Assembly: GCA_045586685.1 (NCBI GenBank)
Contig: JAZNAU010000009.1
Span: forward strand, 22,420-86,419
Length of the DNA stretch: 64,000 nt
Source of the DNA: Clostridia bacterium
GTDB taxonomy: Bacteria; Bacillota; Clostridia; HGM11514
Direction: 5' to 3'
The position numbers were made by a program, and so were the translations under genes. The notes under the pieces were generated by a model. It was not told the DNA's origin. It worked only from the letters and a program-made list of their open reading frames with translations, and did not search any database. Positions 1-28,560 of the stretch are shown in pieces. Position 1 is the first letter of the stretch. Every line of letters starts with the position of its first letter.

Positions 1-503
1 TTTGCGGTGTAAAAACTGCCATTTTCGTAATGAATTCTGCCTTTATGATGGGCAGTATGGGTACTGTTGTAGGAGAAAAGATTACCCGCCTCTTTGAACT
101 GGCAACCAAGGAAAAGCTTCCTGTTGTAGGCTTTACCACATCAGGCGGAGCCAGAATGCAAGAAGGAATCCTCTCTTTGATGCAGATGGCAAAAACCAGC
201 GGCGCAGTAAAACGACACAGCGATGCAGGTCTTCTTTATATCACCGTTCTTACCGACCCCACTACAGGAGGCGTTACTGCAAGCTTTGCCATGGAAGGAG
301 ATATTATTATTTCCGAACCCAAGGCACTGGTTGGTTTTGCAGGCGCCAGAGTGATTGAACAAACCATTGGACAGAAGCTTCCGGAAGGCTTCCAGAGAGC
401 AGAATTTTTGTTGGAGCATGGGTTTATAGACATGATTGAACCCAGGGAAACCTTAAAAGAGTGTCTGTCTCATATTCTGATCATGCATGAGGTGAAAAAA
501 TGA
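1..503 (+). CDS. accD: acetyl-CoA carboxylase carboxyltransferase beta subunit, 5'-truncated at window edge
   Basis: Frame is open from nt 3; translation ...[27 protein letters not shown]... matches the AccD carboxyltransferase core; stop overlaps accA start (ATGA). Confidence 0.85.
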
Positions 504-1276
504 AAGCATATACAAGAGTTCAAAACGCAAGAAAAGGGCAAAGACCCTCAGGTTATTTTTTCATCAACCAAATGATTGACCAATTTACCGAATTTCACGG
601 TGACCGCAGATTTGGTGACGACGGTGCGATTGTGGCAGGGATTGGAACTTTAAACGGAACACCTGTTACTGTCATTGCCATGGAACGGGGCACTACCATT
701 GAGGAGAGAATGAAGCGGAATTTCGGCTGTCCTTCTCCCGAAGGTTATAGAAAAGCCCTGAGGCTGATGAAACAAGCTGAAAAATTTCACCGCCCTGTGA
801 TTTGCCTCATCGGGAGCTCCGGAGCATATCCCGGAATCAGCGCAGAGGAACGTGGTCAGGGAGAAGCCATTGCAGAAAATCTGATGGAAATGATGACCTT
901 AAAAACACCCATTGTATCAGTGGTTGTAGGCGAAGGCGGCAGCGGCGGTGCGTTGGCACTGGGTGTTGCAGATACGGTCATCATGCTGGAAAACGCAGTA
1001 TATTCCGTCATTTCTCCTGAAGCCTGTGCAAGTATTCTTTGGAAGGATGCGGCTAAGGCGGATGAAGCGGCAGATGCTCTCAAGCTGACCGCATATGACC
1101 TAAAAGAATTTGGTGTGATTGAGACGGTCGTCCCCGAACCGGAAGACATCTCCCCCGAACAGCTTTGCGCAAGTCTGAAAGCTGTTTTAGTGCGGGAAAT
1201 CAATCAAAAAAGCAAGCTGTCTGTTGACAAACTGGTAGAACAGAGATATCAAAGATTCCGTAAAATCGGAAGCTAA
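500..1276 (+). CDS. accA: acetyl-CoA carboxylase carboxyltransferase alpha subunit
   Basis: 258 aa; GTxxxxIAMERG..[23 protein letters not shown] motifs typical of AccA; translationally coupled to accD. Confidence 0.9.
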
Positions 1277-1337
1277 TGCGAATTAACAAAAAGGAATCTC
1301 CTTTGGTAGCAGATACATTTCAACATACAAACAACAA

Positions 1338-1375
1338 ACTCCCCAATACCCTGATGGGTATTGGGGAGTTTTGGC
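1338..1375 (+). terminator. rho-independent terminator after accA
   Basis: hairpin ctccccaataccc-tga-tgggtattggggag followed by tttt. Confidence 0.6.
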
Positions 1376-1404
1376 TTTCAAGTACATAATAGATGCAGTT
1401 AATT

Positions 1405-1590
1405 TTAGCGATATACTCGCTATTGCTCGTGCGATATATTTGCTTCTCAAATTCGATATAACTCCACTTCGTTTTGTTGCGATATGATATAAATTCCTTT
1501 TTCTCGTTGCCGCAAGGCAACATATCGCATCAAAGATATATCGCGTACGAAGTACATATCGCAAATTCCGTCAGGAATTTATATCGATGA
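1405..1590. repeat. array of eight GCGATAT/ATATCGC heptamers (4 direct then 4 inverted) around central palindrome gttgccgcaaggcaac
   Basis: forward copies near 1408, 1431, 1453, 1479; reverse copies near 1522, 1538, 1556, 1581; spacing about 16-26 bp; central palindrome 1506-1521. Confidence 0.6.
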
Positions 1591-1622: not shown

Positions 1623-1699
1623 TGGTCGGAGTGACAGGATTCGAACCTGCGACATCCTGCTCCCAAAGCAGGCGCGCTACCAACTGCGCTACACCCCGA
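1623..1699 (-). tRNA. tRNA-Pro (anticodon UGG)
   Basis: reverse complement CGGGGTGTAGCGCAGTTGGTAGCGCGCCTGCTTTGGGAGCAGG...GGTTCGAATCC...CCGACCA folds as a cloverleaf; anticodon loop UUUGGGA. Confidence 0.9.
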
Positions 1700-3657: not shown

Positions 3658-4077
3658 TTATTCTTCTGACTGTTCTTTGTTTCCTTTTTTACTTGTAATA
3701 GCAGAGCTGATTTTCTCTACCGCATCCGGAATATAATCCACCAGCTTGTCAATAGGATTGTCCTGATTGACAGGCATCAGCTTAATCTGATTTTTTCCAA
3801 CAATCATAAATGCTACCGGTTGGATTGAAACTCCTGCACCGCTTCCTCCTCCAAAGAGATTGGTATTATCCGGTGCTTTCACTTTTTCCGGAGTATGAAA
3901 CTCGGATCCGCCTGCCGCAAAGCCAAAGCTTACCTTTGAAATCGGAATAATCACTGTACCATCTGCAGTTTCTACAGGGGAACCTACAATGGTATTCACA
4001 TCTACCATCTCTTTAATGCTTTGCATTGCAGTTGCCATCAAACCCTGAATTGGATGATCAGACATTGTTATAACCAC
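3658..4077 (-). CDS. ytfJ: sporulation protein YtfJ (GerW family)
   Basis: 139 aa; HPIQGLMATAM..VNTIVGSPVETADGTVIIPISKVSFGFAAGGSEF closely resembles B. subtilis YtfJ. Confidence 0.85.
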   Translation of the reverse strand: MVITMSDHPIQGLMATAMQSIKEMVDVNTIVGSPVETADGTVIIPISKVSFGFAAGGSEFHTPEKVKAPDNTNLFGGGSGAGVSIQPVAFMIVGKNQIKLMPVNQDNPIDKLVDYIPDAVEKISSAITSKKGNKEQSEE

Positions 4078-4251
4078 CTTTCTTATCTACAACTCATGTT
4101 TAATATGAGCCAAAATGATGTAATCTATACTTTTATTATACACCAAAAAAAACAAAAGCGCAAGTATATTCTTGAAAAAAATTCCAATCCATGAATAAAC
4201 TTATTTTCTTCTGTCCACAATACAATTATCAATCATAAAGGAGAGGTCGCC

Positions 4252-4521
4252 ATGATTTACGGAAAATCCAGAAATGTAGTAGTTATTCAGAATATTGATT
4301 CAACTTATGTAGAACAAGCCATTCTGATTTTAAAAAAAAATCCGGGAAACAAAGAATTTTACGCCTCTGAGGAGGGCATTGTAAAAGAAGCACAACGCAT
4401 TATTGAACAATATAATCAAAATCAAATGACTCCACCAAACAATAAATTACATCGTTTTTGGGGATATCTGTTAATCGGAGCAACCGCTGTTGTTTCCTGT
4501 ATCTTATATCTGGTTTCTTAA
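4252..4521 (+). CDS. hypothetical small protein with C-terminal transmembrane segment
   Basis: 89 aa ORF with aaggagag RBS 7 nt upstream; followed by hairpin terminator at 4532-4562. Confidence 0.5.
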   Translation: MIYGKSRNVVVIQNIDSTYVEQAILILKKNPGNKEFYASEEGIVKEAQRIIEQYNQNQMTPPNNKLHRFWGYLLIGATAVVSCILYLVS

Positions 4522-25903: not shown

Positions 25904-26821
25904 ATGAATCATGTAAAATATAATAAAAGGAAGTGCACAACAATGATTGTAAATAAACAGAATAATTATAGTTTATATAGTAATCCCGATACAAATCTAT
26001 TATCCAATCAAATTTGTTTCTCTCTGTTTGAGCATACTTACTTTGAATGTTCAAAAGAGGTTACCACCGTTCACAGCAACAAACGATTTAACAATACTAA
26101 TTTAATTTATTATATCATCGAAGGTGGCGGAACCATCCTATTGTCGGATCGAAAAATTCCTATTGTTCCCGGAAAAATTTATTTTTTCCCCTGTGTAAAA
26201 CCCGAAAATTACACCTCTGTAGTTCAACCGGATACAAAAAAAGTACAGATTCAATTTCAATGCAATCTGTACAGTAATCAGGATATTTTCGCTGATGTGC
26301 TTTATCCCCAATGTCTGGAGGATACTCACCATCTGATTCCTATTATAAAAGAAACGGTTCTTTCAAAAAACCCAGGAACACAAGTCCTGCTTTCTCCTTT
26401 GATTCAGTTAAGTATTGCTCCCTTATTTAAGCTAGTCGAGCAATCCTTAAGCGAGCAACTGATAAAAGGAAAAAAATACAGTACTCTCTTTGACTATATT
26501 AACCATAATTTATACATTGACCTGACCACAGAAAAATTGGCTAAGGAAACCGGTTTTTCTGTTTACTCCCTGACTCATACCATTCCAAAAGAAATGGGAT
26601 TTACCTTTAAAAAGTACATTACAAACAGAATTTTACGGTTGGTTTGCTTAGATTTAATTTATACAGAAACCTTAATCCGCAACATCGCTTTTAAGTACCA
26701 CTTCTCTACCGAAGGATATTTTTCAGATTGGTTTTTCAAATTAACCGAAAAGCGCCCCAAGGAATATCGTCAAAAATTCCGTTCTGCAGGGAATTACAGT
26801 TTTTATCAAAATCATATTTAA
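25904..26821 (+). CDS. AraC family transcriptional regulator (cupin + HTH)
   Basis: 305 aa; C-terminal AraC HTH (..LAKETGFSVYSLTHTIPKEMGFTFKKYITNRILRLVCLDL..); very AT-rich. Confidence 0.75.
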   Translation: MNHVKYNKRKCTTMIVNKQNNYSLYSNPDTNLLSNQICFSLFEHTYFECSKEVTTVHSNKRFNNTNLIYYIIEGGGTILLSDRKIPIVPGKIYFFPCVKPENYTSVVQPDTKKVQIQFQCNLYSNQDIFADVLYPQCLEDTHHLIPIIKETVLSKNPGTQVLLSPLIQLSIAPLFKLVEQSLSEQLIKGKKYSTLFDYINHNLYIDLTTEKLAKETGFSVYSLTHTIPKEMGFTFKKYITNRILRLVCLDLIYTETLIRNIAFKYHFSTEGYFSDWFFKLTEKRPKEYRQKFRSAGNYSFYQNHI

Positions 26822-26911
26822 CGATTGAACATTTAGATTTTTAAGGTAACCGATTTTTGAGAAGTTTTACTAATAAATTAAGCAGAACCATAGAGATATT
26901 TAATTTATAAT

Positions 26912-27106
26912 AATTTGACAACTTCGTTGTCATGAATTGGTTTTACCATGAATTGTTGCTGTCGCAACATGAATTGAATTGCCTTAATGCACCCTAAGGT
27001 GCAATTCATGAGCCGTAGGCTTAATTCATGAAATCGCAGATTTCAATTCGTGCCGTCAGGCAATTTATTGAAAAAGCGACTTGTCAAAACAAGCCGCTTT
27101 TTCTGG
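26912..27106. repeat. repeat R, copy 1 (about 195 bp), ending in hairpin terminator
   Basis: near-identical to 30548-30726 apart from one 15-bp indel and 4 substitutions; contains TGACAACttcgGTTGTCA palindrome and multiple ATGAATTG/CAATTCAT octamers. Confidence 0.9.
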
Positions 27107-27120
27107 AAGAACCCAATGGT

Positions 27121-28560
27121 TTAGATGCCACAATTTATTAAGTAATTATGTTTCATCGGTCCCGAGCCATTTCCCAAATCAAGACCTTCTAAAAGTGCAT
27201 ATGATATATATTCTTTCGCTCTTTTAACCGAGTCTTTGAGGTTAAGTCCTTTTGCAAGATTTGATGCTATTGCACTGGAAAGAGTGCATCCGGTTCCATG
27301 TGTGTTTGGGTTATCAATCCTTTTTCCATCGAACCATACAAACTTACCACTTTCATACAAAAGATCATTTGCATCATTTATACTATGCCCACCTTTCAAC
27401 AAAACGCAGCACCCATAGTTTTTCTCAATGAATTCTGCTGCTTTTATCATATCGTCATTACTCTTGATTTTCATATCTGATAAAATTTCCGCCTCAGGAA
27501 TATTGGGTGTCACAACAGTTGCAATGGGTAAGAGTTTTTGAGTTAATGTTTTTACGGCATCTGTCTTCATAAGAGTTGAGCCGCTTGTTGCAACCATAAC
27601 CGGATCTACAACAATATTCTTTGCATTATAAAATTTAAGTCTATCTACAATTACTTTAATAAGTTCGCTTGAGGATACCATCCCGATTTTTACACTATCG
27701 GGAAATATATCTTGAAATACTGCATCAATTTGTTCTTTTAAAAATTCGGGAGTAGTTTCCTCAATCGCTCTTACTCCAAGTGTATTTTGAGCTGTAAGTG
27801 CAGTAATGGCACTCATAGCATAAACACCATTCATTGTCATAGTTTTGATATCTGCCTGAATACCTGCACCACCACTTGAATCACTGCCGGCAATAGTTAA
27901 TACCGTTTTCATTTTGGTGGCAAAGCAGAAGCTTCCGAAATCCTTTATGTAATAATCTGAAATTTCTTTCATCTGCTCTTGACTTAGTTCGTGTTCATCA
28001 TAAACTGCCGCAACCTTAAATCCATCATCTTTAGCAGTTTTAAGTGCATGAACCACATCTTCAAAAACTACAGTTTCTGTTTTTTCTGTACCAAGATATT
28101 CAAGTGCTTTACGATAAATATGAGATGTGGTTTTGTCATAACCTACTTCTGCACAGGAGAATATTTCAGAAAAGTATTCCAGAACCCCCAATCGTTTTAA
28201 CACATCTTCTGCAATAGCTCTGTCCGTCACAGTTGCAACACACATTTTTACACCTTTATAATGTAACCTTTTTAGAAAATCTTTCACACCTGATTTCAAC
28301 GTTACCTTTGTCCGATAAATTTCAGCCACCATATTATTTATATCGTTAACAATTTCTTGGGCAGAAAGATTAACACCATAATGCTCGCGATAATATTCTG
28401 CGGCTTGCTGGAGTGTAAATGTTTTAAATGCTTCTGCAAGGTTTTCTTTGGGTTCTTTCCCAAGTGTTCTTAAATAATCCTCGCCAAACGTGTCCCATAT
28501 CCACATAGAATCTATAATTGTTCCGTCTAAATCAAATATTGCACCCTTAAACACCTTCAA
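27121..28560 (-). CDS. thiD: fusion protein: N-terminal HAD-superfamily hydrolase + C-terminal hydroxymethylpyrimidine/phosphomethylpyrimidine kinase (ThiD)
   Basis: residues 1-200 FDLDGTIIDS... (HAD motif I); residues about 205-479 VLTIAGSDSSGGAGIQADIKT...GTGCTLSSAIA (ThiD ribokinase-fold signature). Confidence 0.8.
   Translation of the reverse strand: MKVFKGAIFDLDGTIIDSMWIWDTFGEDYLRTLGKEPKENLAEAFKTFTLQQAAEYYREHYGVNLSAQEIVNDINNMVAEIYRTKVTLKSGVKDFLKRLHYKGVKMCVATVTDRAIAEDVLKRLGVLEYFSEIFSCAEVGYDKTTSHIYRKALEYLGTEKTETVVFEDVVHALKTAKDDGFKVAAVYDEHELSQEQMKEISDYYIKDFGSFCFATKMKTVLTIAGSDSSGGAGIQADIKTMTMNGVYAMSAITALTAQNTLGVRAIEETTPEFLKEQIDAVFQDIFPDSVKIGMVSSSELIKVIVDRLKFYNAKNIVVDPVMVATSGSTLMKTDAVKTLTQKLLPIATVVTPNIPEAEILSDMKIKSNDDMIKAAEFIEKNYGCCVLLKGGHSINDANDLLYESGKFVWFDGKRIDNPNTHGTGCTLSSAIASNLAKGLNLKDSVKRAKEYISYALLEGLDLGNGSGPMKHNYLINCGI

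Follow-up and report, generated by a model that had tools for sequence, protein, structure and literature searches.

An inverted heptamer-hairpin array behind a tRNA-Pro gene of a Clostridia bacterium as a diverged relative of Gut-1 RNA with a possible link to PF05635 genes

Between accA and a tRNA-Pro gene of a Clostridia bacterium lies an array of eight short repeats separated by hairpins, which is analyzed here within a stretch of 64,000 nucleotides (assembly GCA_045586685.1, contig JAZNAU010000009.1, positions 22,420 to 86,419; this whole 64-kb stretch is termed the window and all coordinates refer to it). Judged by its sequence, the array belongs to the Gut-1 kind as a diverged member with two modules, of which the Rfam model covers the first alone. 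Moreover, it may represent a gene-less copy of a dispersed cassette, the non-coding part of which includes Gut-1 and the intact form of which would be the leader of a PF05635 gene, a reading that we consider evenly balanced between right and wrong. For the annotation of the window this means that the array is to be recorded as a copy of a repeat element, which is probably a relic. Most likely, it does not act as a regulator of accA or of tRNA-Pro.

The array spans ~180 bp and consists of four forward and four inverted heptamers around a central hairpin. An original prediction, made from the sequence alone, had described eight copies of GCGATAT and a central palindrome, and the heptamer positions as well as the palindrome (gttgccgcaaggcaac at 1506-1521) were recovered. 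The eight sites and their inverted four plus four arrangement hold, but only six copies are exact (plus strand: 1408, 1431, 1479; minus strand: 1522, 1538, 1556), the other two being TCGATAT with a mismatch in the first base (1453-1459 (+) and 1581-1587 (-)). Neighbouring heptamers start 23, 22 and 26 bp apart in one half of the array; for the other half, the distances are 16, 18 and 25 bp. The excess over expectation on which the prediction relied was found as well: GCGATAT occurs 12 times on both strands of the window compared to 4.49 expected occurrences, none of 100 shuffles reaches 12, and six of the 12 are concentrated in 155 bp, while no other CGATAT cluster is present in the 64-kb window. 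A chance origin of the array is ruled out by the shuffles and by its recurrence in many genomes.

Read on the minus strand, a terminator-like hairpin (P0) is followed by four units of GCGAUAU plus hairpin, by the central hairpin and by four units of AUAUCGC plus hairpin, each spacer between heptamers being a short hairpin. The heptamers are numbered H1 to H8 in this direction and the hairpins P0 to P7; H1 to H4 constitute module A and H5 to H8 module B (Table 1). The path through the heptamers of module A reads CA-UCGAUAU-P1-GCGAUAU-P2-GCGAUAU-P3-GCGAUAU-P4. A 13-nt inverted repeat (I7), which is 100% complementary, connects 1486-1497 (12 nt) with H1 and the 5' arm of P1. Neither this complementarity nor the hairpins between the heptamers and the abutment of P0 on H1 had been noted in the original prediction. 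It had been proposed that the array might form a long imperfect hairpin RNA. The strong single-strand structure stands, with folding of the array versus shuffles yielding z = -6.3 and -5.8 and both strands being strongly structured, but it is a chain of eight short hairpins and not a single one. The open reading frame (ORF) at 1283-1564 (-) was already regarded as spurious and we agree, since the ORFs across the array are short and overlapping; a coding role of the array was rejected for the same reason.

The relation to Gut-1 is supported by the Rfam model (RF01706, 77 nt), which aligns over its full length to 1517-1589 (-) with 28.9 bits (E 6e-4 to 1.4e-3). This score stays below the Gut-1 gathering score of 50 bits, since the heptamer is GCGAUAU instead of GUGAAAU or GUGAUAU. 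No Rfam family other than Gut-1 and tRNA gave a credible match at the array. The window copy shows the Gut-1 pattern, i.e., short hairpins split by a G-Y-G-A-W-A-U heptamer after a leading CA, its GCGAUAU differing from the Gut-1 consensus linker GUGAAAU at positions 2 and 5. Homology to accepted Gut-1 members runs via intermediates. Relatives above the threshold are the loci L112 (57.2 bits), L321 (72.9 and 69.4 bits) and L322 (62.6 bits), and L112 contains both a GCGAUAU element and, 265 nt off, the threshold-passing Gut-1 with GUGAUAU in module A and AUAUCAC in module B. A further intermediate is the element of L351, which reaches 46.8 bits and is located at the orthologous tRNA-Pro. In the flanks of the original Gut-1 alignment, the same layout was found, with a tRNA 3' end, a terminator-like P0, four GUGAUAU, four AUAUCAC and tandem-G.A hairpins; in a second case it comes after a stop codon. 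Gut-1 and the window element thus have in common a hairpin followed by a conserved heptamer, three to four such repeats after a leading CA and the occurrence in gut Clostridia; the model matches module A end to end, and GUGAUAU heptamers are intermediate between both. The published description of Gut-1 differs in that it contains neither P0 nor the long-range helix, module B, the dispersal or the PF05635 link. The motif was found in human gut sequences only and was classed as a likely non-coding RNA (ncRNA; Weinberg et al., 2010, PMC2864571), and our literature searches on Gut-1 returned nothing later than that study.

The element is dispersed in Oscillospirales of gut and rumen. A pattern scan for three GCGATAT spaced by gaps of 6-26 nt, in which each GTDB species was represented by a single genome, yielded at least 120 loci. 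Many of the matches outside the Clostridia are periodic or coding repeats; the Oscillospirales matches come from gut and rumen metagenome-assembled genomes labelled Ruminococcaceae, Acutalibacteraceae, Oscillospiraceae or 'Clostridia bacterium'. Among the matches listed, the exact four plus four layout is present in L007, L016, L031, L033, L037, L052, L053, L087, L112 and L114 and a near four plus four layout in ~9 further loci, besides many single four-heptamer modules. In all full copies a hairpin ends 0-1 nt ahead of H1, usually after CA. P1 conforms to aaauYcc...ggRauuu, P2 and P3 are short, P4 is rich in G+C, and a distal ggRauuuauauc segment is present; the hairpins of module B often contain tandem G.A pairs (cGAgc...gcGAg). 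The heptamer spacing is irregular, ranging from 16 to 26 bp in the window and from 13 to 27 bp in other copies. An all-versus-all blastn comparison of the elements including 300-400 nt of flank showed that homology between copies extends from 2-3 nt ahead of H1 to H8. The same holds for the window copy, which is homologous as a whole unit, from CA and H1 to H8, and is 88.1% identical to L074 over 185 nt (-2 to +180) with unrelated flanks; the identity to L114 is 80% and that to L012 77%. Two loci of one genome, L014 and L118, are 98.9% identical over a single module and differ in their P0 hairpins and flanks. Moreover, L237 contains three copies within 5 kb, L055 contains four single modules within 8 kb, and several metagenome contigs end exactly where the element starts.

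The genes upstream of the elements appear to be unrelated housekeeping genes, which by eye from their translations we take to encode TrmD, serine dehydratase, a RumA-type methyltransferase, fucose isomerase, LivF, PrmA, HydF and TatD. The closest gene on the upstream side has the same orientation as the minus-strand reading of the array in 18 of the 21 full elements and usually ends 0-40 nt from P0, while the downstream genes of full elements are divided 8 versus 8 in their orientation. Sigma-A promoters are located just upstream of P0 in L039 (TTGATA-17-TATAAT), L004 (TTGAAA-17-TATAAT), L052 (TGATATAAT) and L364 (TTGATT-17-TATAAT). Together, the upstream co-orientation and these promoters support transcription in the sense from P0 over module A to module B.

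Several of these loci show further peculiarities. Hairpins resembling repetitive extragenic palindromic (REP) sequences with a GTAGGG head (e.g., tgtaggggcgaccattggtcgcccc) are located 20-60 nt from single modules in L014, L017, L019, L055 and L083, suggesting that the intergenic spots of those modules collect repeats of more than one kind. An insertion of ~130 nt (gagcgatgggagcgctgccggtggcag...) is present between P4 and the distal segment in L072 (1209-1340) and in L101, the elements being otherwise normal; in L072, moreover, the whole unit including P0 is tandemly duplicated. L361 and L360 are the same locus from different samples, and L361 is devoid of H3-P3-H4. This appears to be a deletion between two identical atccctgcgggat hairpins, by which arrays would shrink through recombination between their own repeats.

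The hairpins are maintained as paired structures while their sequences change. Hairpin statistics were calculated on segments parsed by regular expressions, because MAFFT alignment of full elements misaligns H3. The outer three positions of P1, P2 and P3 are paired in 95-97% of the cases (50-52 modules), compared to 51-59% after swapping of the arms between elements and 47-55% after arm exchange in a test of four positions, and none of 1000 arm swaps reaches the observed pairing. Each hairpin position is represented by 17-22 distinct arm pairs, so that the stem sequences drift while remaining paired. A P0 hairpin of at least five pairs ends 0-3 nt ahead of H1 in 47 of 53 modules, and the stem of P4 contains at least four contiguous pairs in 49 of 53. 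For the helix formed by H1/P1 and the distal segment, compensatory changes were found in L016 (ggatcc), L065 (gaattc) and L081 (GAGAT/ATCTC). The heptamers are invariant within a class, and the class changes in both modules together (GUGAUAU, GUGAAAU, GUGAAGC). RNAalifold, applied to 18 full elements, pairs H1 with H8, H2 with H7 and H4 with H5, resulting in a rod with four-way junctions. With respect to the strand, the hairpins of module B contain 42 G.A/A.G cells in the minus-strand reading versus 4 U.C-type cells in module A, and the module B wobbles (4 versus 1) plus the tandem G.A pairs weakly favor the minus strand. Two other ways to assign the strand were rejected: the UNC/GNA bias of the loop sequences is mirror-symmetric and gives no orientation, and the G.U versus A.C wobbles in module A are too few (3 versus 4).

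In a part of the loci the element is directly followed by a gene. An ORF that begins with M(N/A/E)(D/N)KTIKEL starts 14-17 nt past H8, behind a ribosome-binding site, in L012, L039, L052 and L074, and a PF05635 gene starts at the same distance in L323, L343, L360 and L364; variant layouts are present in L080, L086, L102 and L333. Overall, the distance from the end of module B to the start codon is 14-27 nt in at least seven distinct gene neighbourhoods. The encoded protein of ~115 aa belongs to PF05635 (23S_rRNA_IVP, a four-helix bundle; Pfam E = 5e-21). PF05635 is a very large family, and a protein search with a cutoff of E ≤ 1e-10 returned 4349 relatives for this subfamily alone, many of which are close to 80% identical. 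Of five relatives looked up, all five have the element directly upstream, in differing neighbourhoods. Element and gene come after a phosphodiesterase-like gene in L323 and after genes for RumA-type methyltransferases in L343 and L360, and have their own promoter beside a divergent AsnC-type gene in L364. In L333, located between prs and pth, module B is ahead of the ORF and module A behind it. Many single modules and roughly three quarters of the sampled full elements are without a PF05635 gene in their vicinity. Truncated PF05635 ORFs adjoin decayed arrays in L086 and L355, and these decayed or truncated genes beside elements suggest that orphan elements arise by gene loss. In contrast to the PF05635-linked cassette, the window copy has no PF05635 ORF that starts within ~30 nt past H8. 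The nearest solved structure of the protein is 2RLD (E = 4e-22), the single entry of which comprises five chains of an uncharacterised protein, and no literature on the function of stand-alone PF05635 proteins was found outside diversity-generating retroelements. A figure legend of a 2023 survey lists '23S rRNA IVP' among the proteins associated with arrays of clustered regularly interspaced short palindromic repeats (CRISPR; PMC10910872). This association might be due to heptamer arrays being scored as CRISPR-like.

Diverged PF05635 genes with other heptamers were obtained from viral contigs. Three heptamer classes go along with three protein clades, which are 48-57% identical to the main clade. 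In the GUGAAAU/AUUUCAC class, the protein is 51-52% identical and the module A copies score 62.6-72.9 bits against Gut-1; here, L322 has the order tRNA, P0, module A, module B and ORF. In the GUGAAGC/CCUUCAC class, the protein is 56-57% identical, and L358 comes after a tRNA and a terminator. L359 (IMGVR_UViG_3300014039_000485, ~600-1100) encodes a 48%-identical ORF with five contiguous heptamers of CAATTGA/CAATGGA upstream and the reverse complement downstream. As RNA, the two arrays of L359 would pair to a stem of ~35 bp around the ORF, which resembles the situation in rRNA intervening sequences. L356 (IMGVR_UViG_3300029310_000377) contains a PF05635 gene, 49% identical, after two tRNA genes and a terminator; upstream of 701, a long A/T-rich inverted repeat (acttattacc...ggtaatagtgaataagt) replaces the heptamer-hairpin array. 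As a separate observation, an 18-nt P0 sequence, (t)gttttgtcttcgacaaa, occurs in L323 ahead of H1 (2300-2320) and again directly past the stop codon of the PF05635 gene (2843-2862), and a partial module with ACATCAC heptamers is located past the second P0 copy. This repeat could be an insertion junction repeat or the product of a recombination between elements.

The comparison with close relatives of conserved synteny, in which an absence of the array was to count against the original prediction, gave a mixed outcome. No exact record was found for AccA, RluB and a third protein of the window. Two relatives with conserved synteny (hisF ... ytfJ, dacB, rluB, tRNA-Pro), L350 and L351, were found via homologues of RluB. 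In L351 (RluB 84% identical), the P0 behind tRNA-Pro is homologous and differs in a few bases, and past it an element of a different class is located at the same spot, with GUUAUAU/GUGAUAU, then AUAUCAC, and unrelated hairpins. In L350 (RluB 83% identical), no element is present past tRNA-Pro, and the hairpin there is homologous to the accA terminator of the window. In the same locus (3799-4290), a second copy of the 3' 35 nt of tRNA-Pro is located ~300 nt downstream of the gene and resembles a scar left by an element that had integrated or decayed. A conserved element of the accA/tRNA-Pro spacer was rejected, because 80 metagenome loci with accA relatives (57-74% identity) contain neither the array nor the tRNA-Pro synteny. 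The pattern of L350 and L351 thus speaks for a mobile or replaceable element instead of a conserved site, and together with the 80 accA loci it implies that the array was gained, lost or replaced recently at the foot of the terminator.

The window copy would have lost its PF05635 gene by deletion, of which a trace may be left. The 36 nt past H8 contain aaaattaactgcatctatta, which agrees in 17 of 20 positions with the PF05635 ORFs of L323 and L343 (nt 302-322); the match to the L012 ORF is weaker (15 of 18), and all three fall on the same position of the ORF, the codons for KLIASI. The scores are 25 for L323/L343 and 21 for L012, compared to shuffle means of 15.3-16.7 (sd 2.1-2.8). This is suggestive only of a relic that would remain after an internal deletion of the ribosome-binding site and ~100 codons. 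As the copy has no gene and no promoter-like site and the tRNA-Pro terminator ahead of it is strong, we take it to be most likely a relic with weak expression, or else a decoy site.

The intact cassette would work as follows. The full unit consists of P0, which is often the terminator of the preceding gene, module A, the central hairpin, module B and, in intact copies, a ribosome-binding site and the PF05635 gene (~115 aa), and it would be transcribed from the upstream gene or from an own promoter as leader of the PF05635 mRNA. The identical heptamers, single-stranded between the hairpins, would be putative sites for a homo-oligomeric PF05635 protein, probably a pentamer, for which each module may offer four full sites and a degenerate one (cGAGAaua past P4 and AUAUC ahead of H5). 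The adjacent PF05635 protein would be the obvious candidate reader of the heptamers. Its binding at H8 beside the ribosome-binding site could result in translational autoregulation, and the complementary module might compete intramolecularly with the protein for the heptamers. Recognition by a homo-oligomer is favored over a simple intramolecular pairing since the heptamers are identical within an element, switch in both modules and are five and contiguous in some relatives. Going further, Gut-1-type arrays and PF05635 might constitute one undescribed selfish cassette, kin to ORF-bearing rRNA intervening sequences, which lands at the feet of terminators, notably those of tRNA genes, with a homo-pentamer reading five 7-nt repeats, heptamer and protein co-evolving in classes and the gene-less arrays being miniature derivatives; this broader proposal is tentative and rather doubtful.

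A number of points weigh against the PF05635 leader. No PF05635 match is present anywhere in the 64-kb window, and the linkage elsewhere is one by adjacency only. The five chains of 2RLD are an asymmetric-unit count and not a proven oligomeric state, the co-variation of heptamer class and protein clade could be plain co-divergence, and the match of the putative relic is short. AUAUCGC would not be recognized by a protein specific for single-stranded GCGAUAU, and the role given to the complementary module is a conjecture. The stems of module A are nearly all Watson-Crick (732 versus 3 G.U plus 4 A.C), and the loops are UNC/UNNC in module A and GNA/GNRA in module B on the same strand, i.e., mirror-symmetric; both the few wobbles and the mirror loop bias are expected equally of a palindromic unit at the DNA level and of an RNA. 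The heptamer pairs between modules A and B in the RNAalifold structure never vary and so carry no covariation information. Finally, L055 has its four single modules in antisense orientation, shortly ahead of the housekeeping genes pyrF, rph and yhbY.

The main rival is a DNA mobile element similar to a miniature inverted-repeat transposable element, in which the heptamers would be subterminal sites of a recombinase or transposase type, the hairpins would form in single-stranded DNA or as cruciform, insertion would occur at the 3' foot of terminators and the RNA would be incidental. The terminal heptamers are inverted repeats, the boundaries at H1 and H8 are sharp with unrelated flanks, near-identical copies occupy different loci of one genome (L014/L118), assemblies break at the element, and the same tRNA-Pro terminator has another class or no element in relatives. 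The scarcity of G.U pairs and the mirror loop bias fit as well, as the heptamer-hairpin units are equivalent as double-stranded objects in both halves, and so does the 18-nt P0 sequence on both sides of the element-plus-gene unit in L323. However, no transposase, integrase or known recombinase is linked in the sampled flanks, where a 115-aa helical bundle is the sole linked gene, and no target-site duplication is present at the window copy or at most others. Moreover, the upstream co-orientation, the fixed position of H8 relative to the ribosome-binding site and the promoters into P0 point to a transcribed function, and the tandem G.A pairs of module B are strand-specific. We regard the purely mobile reading as unlikely on balance, although it is compatible with that of an RNA leader. 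Alternatively, a free-standing structured ncRNA could act in trans, alone or via another protein, PF05635 being merely a frequent neighbour. Weinberg et al. (2010, PMC2864571) placed Gut-1 among the likely ncRNAs, which favors this reading, as do the many single modules, the roughly three quarters of full elements that are alone and the own promoters of some copies. It is improbable in view of the PF05635 genes at a fixed distance past H8 in at least seven neighbourhoods and three heptamer classes, of their decayed or truncated forms beside elements (L086, L355) and of the window copy, which is behind a terminator and has no promoter-like site.

The position of the array between convergent tRNA-Pro and accA would suit a bidirectional insulator or terminator, or a stabiliser of mRNA 3' ends similar to REP sequences and bacterial interspersed mosaic elements (BIME), with the heptamers as spacers kept by descent. 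Elements begin right past stop codons, the stems are Watson-Crick only and both strands fold well. Yet U tracts are found on P0 alone, the inner hairpins have just 3-7 bp, and half of the downstream genes are co-directional, some of them starting 14-46 nt past H8; invariant heptamers between drifting stems are, furthermore, the opposite of what a pure hairpin function predicts, which makes this explanation quite improbable. The original prediction had proposed an array of protein-binding sites. Recognition by a multimeric factor is still the simplest explanation for identical heptamers, but the partition site, the centromere-like site, the nucleoid-protein site and the locus-specific regulator that it had in mind do not fit. 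Eight short sites in symmetric orientation are what a DNA-binding array specific for this locus would look like, whether it served partition, bound a nucleoid protein or regulated accA or tRNA-Pro. In contrast, the same element is found behind unrelated genes in many genomes, including the 88%-identical copy, it is absent at the 80 metagenome accA-relative loci, its spacing is irregular and its spacers are covarying hairpins. The neighbours are accA, tRNA-Pro and rluB, and the regular repeats beside par or rep genes that characterize partition centromeres and iterons are not found, as no par/rep genes are nearby and no plasmid or phage matches. A locus-specific array is thus very improbable.

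Comparison with known systems helps to place the PF05635-linked element. The intervening sequences of 23S rRNA carry a PF05635 ('S23p') ORF. From what is known of this family, they share with the element a PF05635 gene in or beside an inserted self-complementary segment and a sporadic distribution, and the inverted heptamer arrays of L359 and L333 flank the ORF as the stems of the intervening sequences do. The window element, in contrast, is located after a tRNA terminator and not in rRNA, and the arrays are usually both upstream of the ORF. Avd of diversity-generating retroelements is a nucleic-acid-binding pentameric helper that works on structured RNA. It has the same fold family as the element-linked protein, being a PF05635 member (the family is listed in PMC10053308); none of the loci examined has a reverse transcriptase, a template repeat or a variable repeat in its vicinity. 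Like the element, REP/BIME sequences are dispersed, multicopy and placed directly past genes, as clusters of hairpins in alternating orientation with a short linear motif per hairpin. They differ in that the REP palindrome itself is conserved, whereas here the stems vary within and between copies and the heptamers alone are fixed, and the window element has no GTAG head. A linked RAYT gene was not seen either, although no search aimed at one was made. The trp leader with TRAP and CsrB/RsmZ serve as a working analogy, with repeated motifs for a homo-oligomer and one site over the ribosome-binding site; the analogy concerns the logic only and implies no relation in sequence or structure.

The Gut-1 motif class itself was already known. 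What we did not encounter in the searched literature is the arrangement of P0 and two modules, the existence of several heptamer classes, the location at terminator feet and the connection to PF05635. Gut-1 has been an orphan motif since 2010, without an assigned organism, function or partner, and the comparison ties it to PF05635, with heptamer classes and cognate protein clades, a ribosome-binding site by the last heptamer and orthologous sites that are filled, swapped or empty. If the link is functional, it would provide a candidate ligand for PF05635 and a mechanism for a repeat family in dominant gut Clostridia.

Table 1. Coordinates of the array, its parts and the flanking features in the window.
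Feature	Position	Strand	Remarks
tRNA-Pro(UGG)	1623-1698	-	upstream, co-oriented; ARAGORN, Rfam tRNA 70.6 bits
P0	1589-1622	-	15-bp hairpin with a U tract on either strand; 100% complementary as inverted repeat I3
Module A (Gut-1-like part)	1522-1587	-	H1-H4 separated by P1-P3
H1	1581-1587	-	UCGAUAU
P1	1563-1580	-	aaauucc-ugac-ggaauuu
H2	1556-1562	-	GCGAUAU
P2	1545-1555	-	guac-uuc-guac
H3	1538-1544	-	GCGAUAU
P3	1529-1537	-	auc-uuu-gau
H4	1522-1528	-	GCGAUAU
P4, central G+C-rich hairpin	1506-1521	-	guugcc-uugc-ggcaac, immediately past H4
Linker	1498-1505	-	
Distal segment ggaauuuauauc	1486-1497	-	complementary to GAUAU of H1 and the 5' arm of P1; long-range pairing alternative to P1
Module B	1408-1485	-	H5-H8 separated by P5-P7
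H5	1479-1485	-	AUAUCGC-type
P5	1460-1478	-	
H6	1453-1459	-	AUAUCGA
P6	1438-1452	-	
H7	1431-1437	-	AUAUCGC-type
P7	1415-1430	-	tandem G.A form acGAgc...gcGAgu
H8	1408-1414	-	AUAUCGC
Tail past H8	1372-1407	-	may derive from the 3' end of a PF05635 gene since deleted (aaaauuaacugcaucuauua)
accA terminator hairpin	1336-1371	+	flank, outside the element; inverted repeat I2 and terminator scan
accA	500-1276	+	convergent with tRNA-Pro

The element starts directly past the 3' end of tRNA-Pro (1623). P0 is the terminator of tRNA-Pro and ends 1 nt ahead of H1, in the position that is occupied by a non-homologous hairpin preceding H1 in other copies. Its stem is flanked by A and U tracts as read from the sequence, and the terminator scan did not list it; among the hairpins of the array, P0 alone combines a G+C-rich hairpin with a U tract as intrinsic terminators do, the inner hairpins being without U tracts. 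A promoter scan found no promoter-like site in 1200-1900. An internal promoter at the central TATAAA/TATGAT motif was rejected on this basis and since the segment pairs compensatorily with H1 and P1, which suggests that it is probably transcribed and is not a -10 box. The window has no plasmid or phage match in either collection, and a plasmid or phage origin was rejected for this reason and as just 2 of the 120 viral pattern matches listed are real elements. Gene orientation and GC skew change from plus to minus near 1.5 kb and return to plus at ~40-52 kb, the array being 1.4 kb from the left edge. For a replication terminus or fork trap with opposed polar sites, the skew is uninformative at the edge of the window and switches again at 40-52 kb, and the occurrence of the element at many loci per genome speaks against such a role.

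At 26,915-27,105, the window contains another element, which has this architecture but differs in its heptamer and is located between the convergent ORFs 25904-26821 (+) and 27121-28560 (-). Its heptamer class, ATGAATT, gave only noise in the viral scan. It begins with a hairpin, tgacaac-ttc-gttgtca, which is followed by three ATGAATT with hairpins and a central hairpin, cacc-ctaa-ggtg; the second part contains AATTCAT, AATTCAT, AATTCGT and AATTTAT with hairpins and a terminator at 27,068-27,100. A TATAAT is found beside the element at 26,905-26,910, and the Rfam Gut-1 model scores 19.2 bits on the element, on the minus strand.

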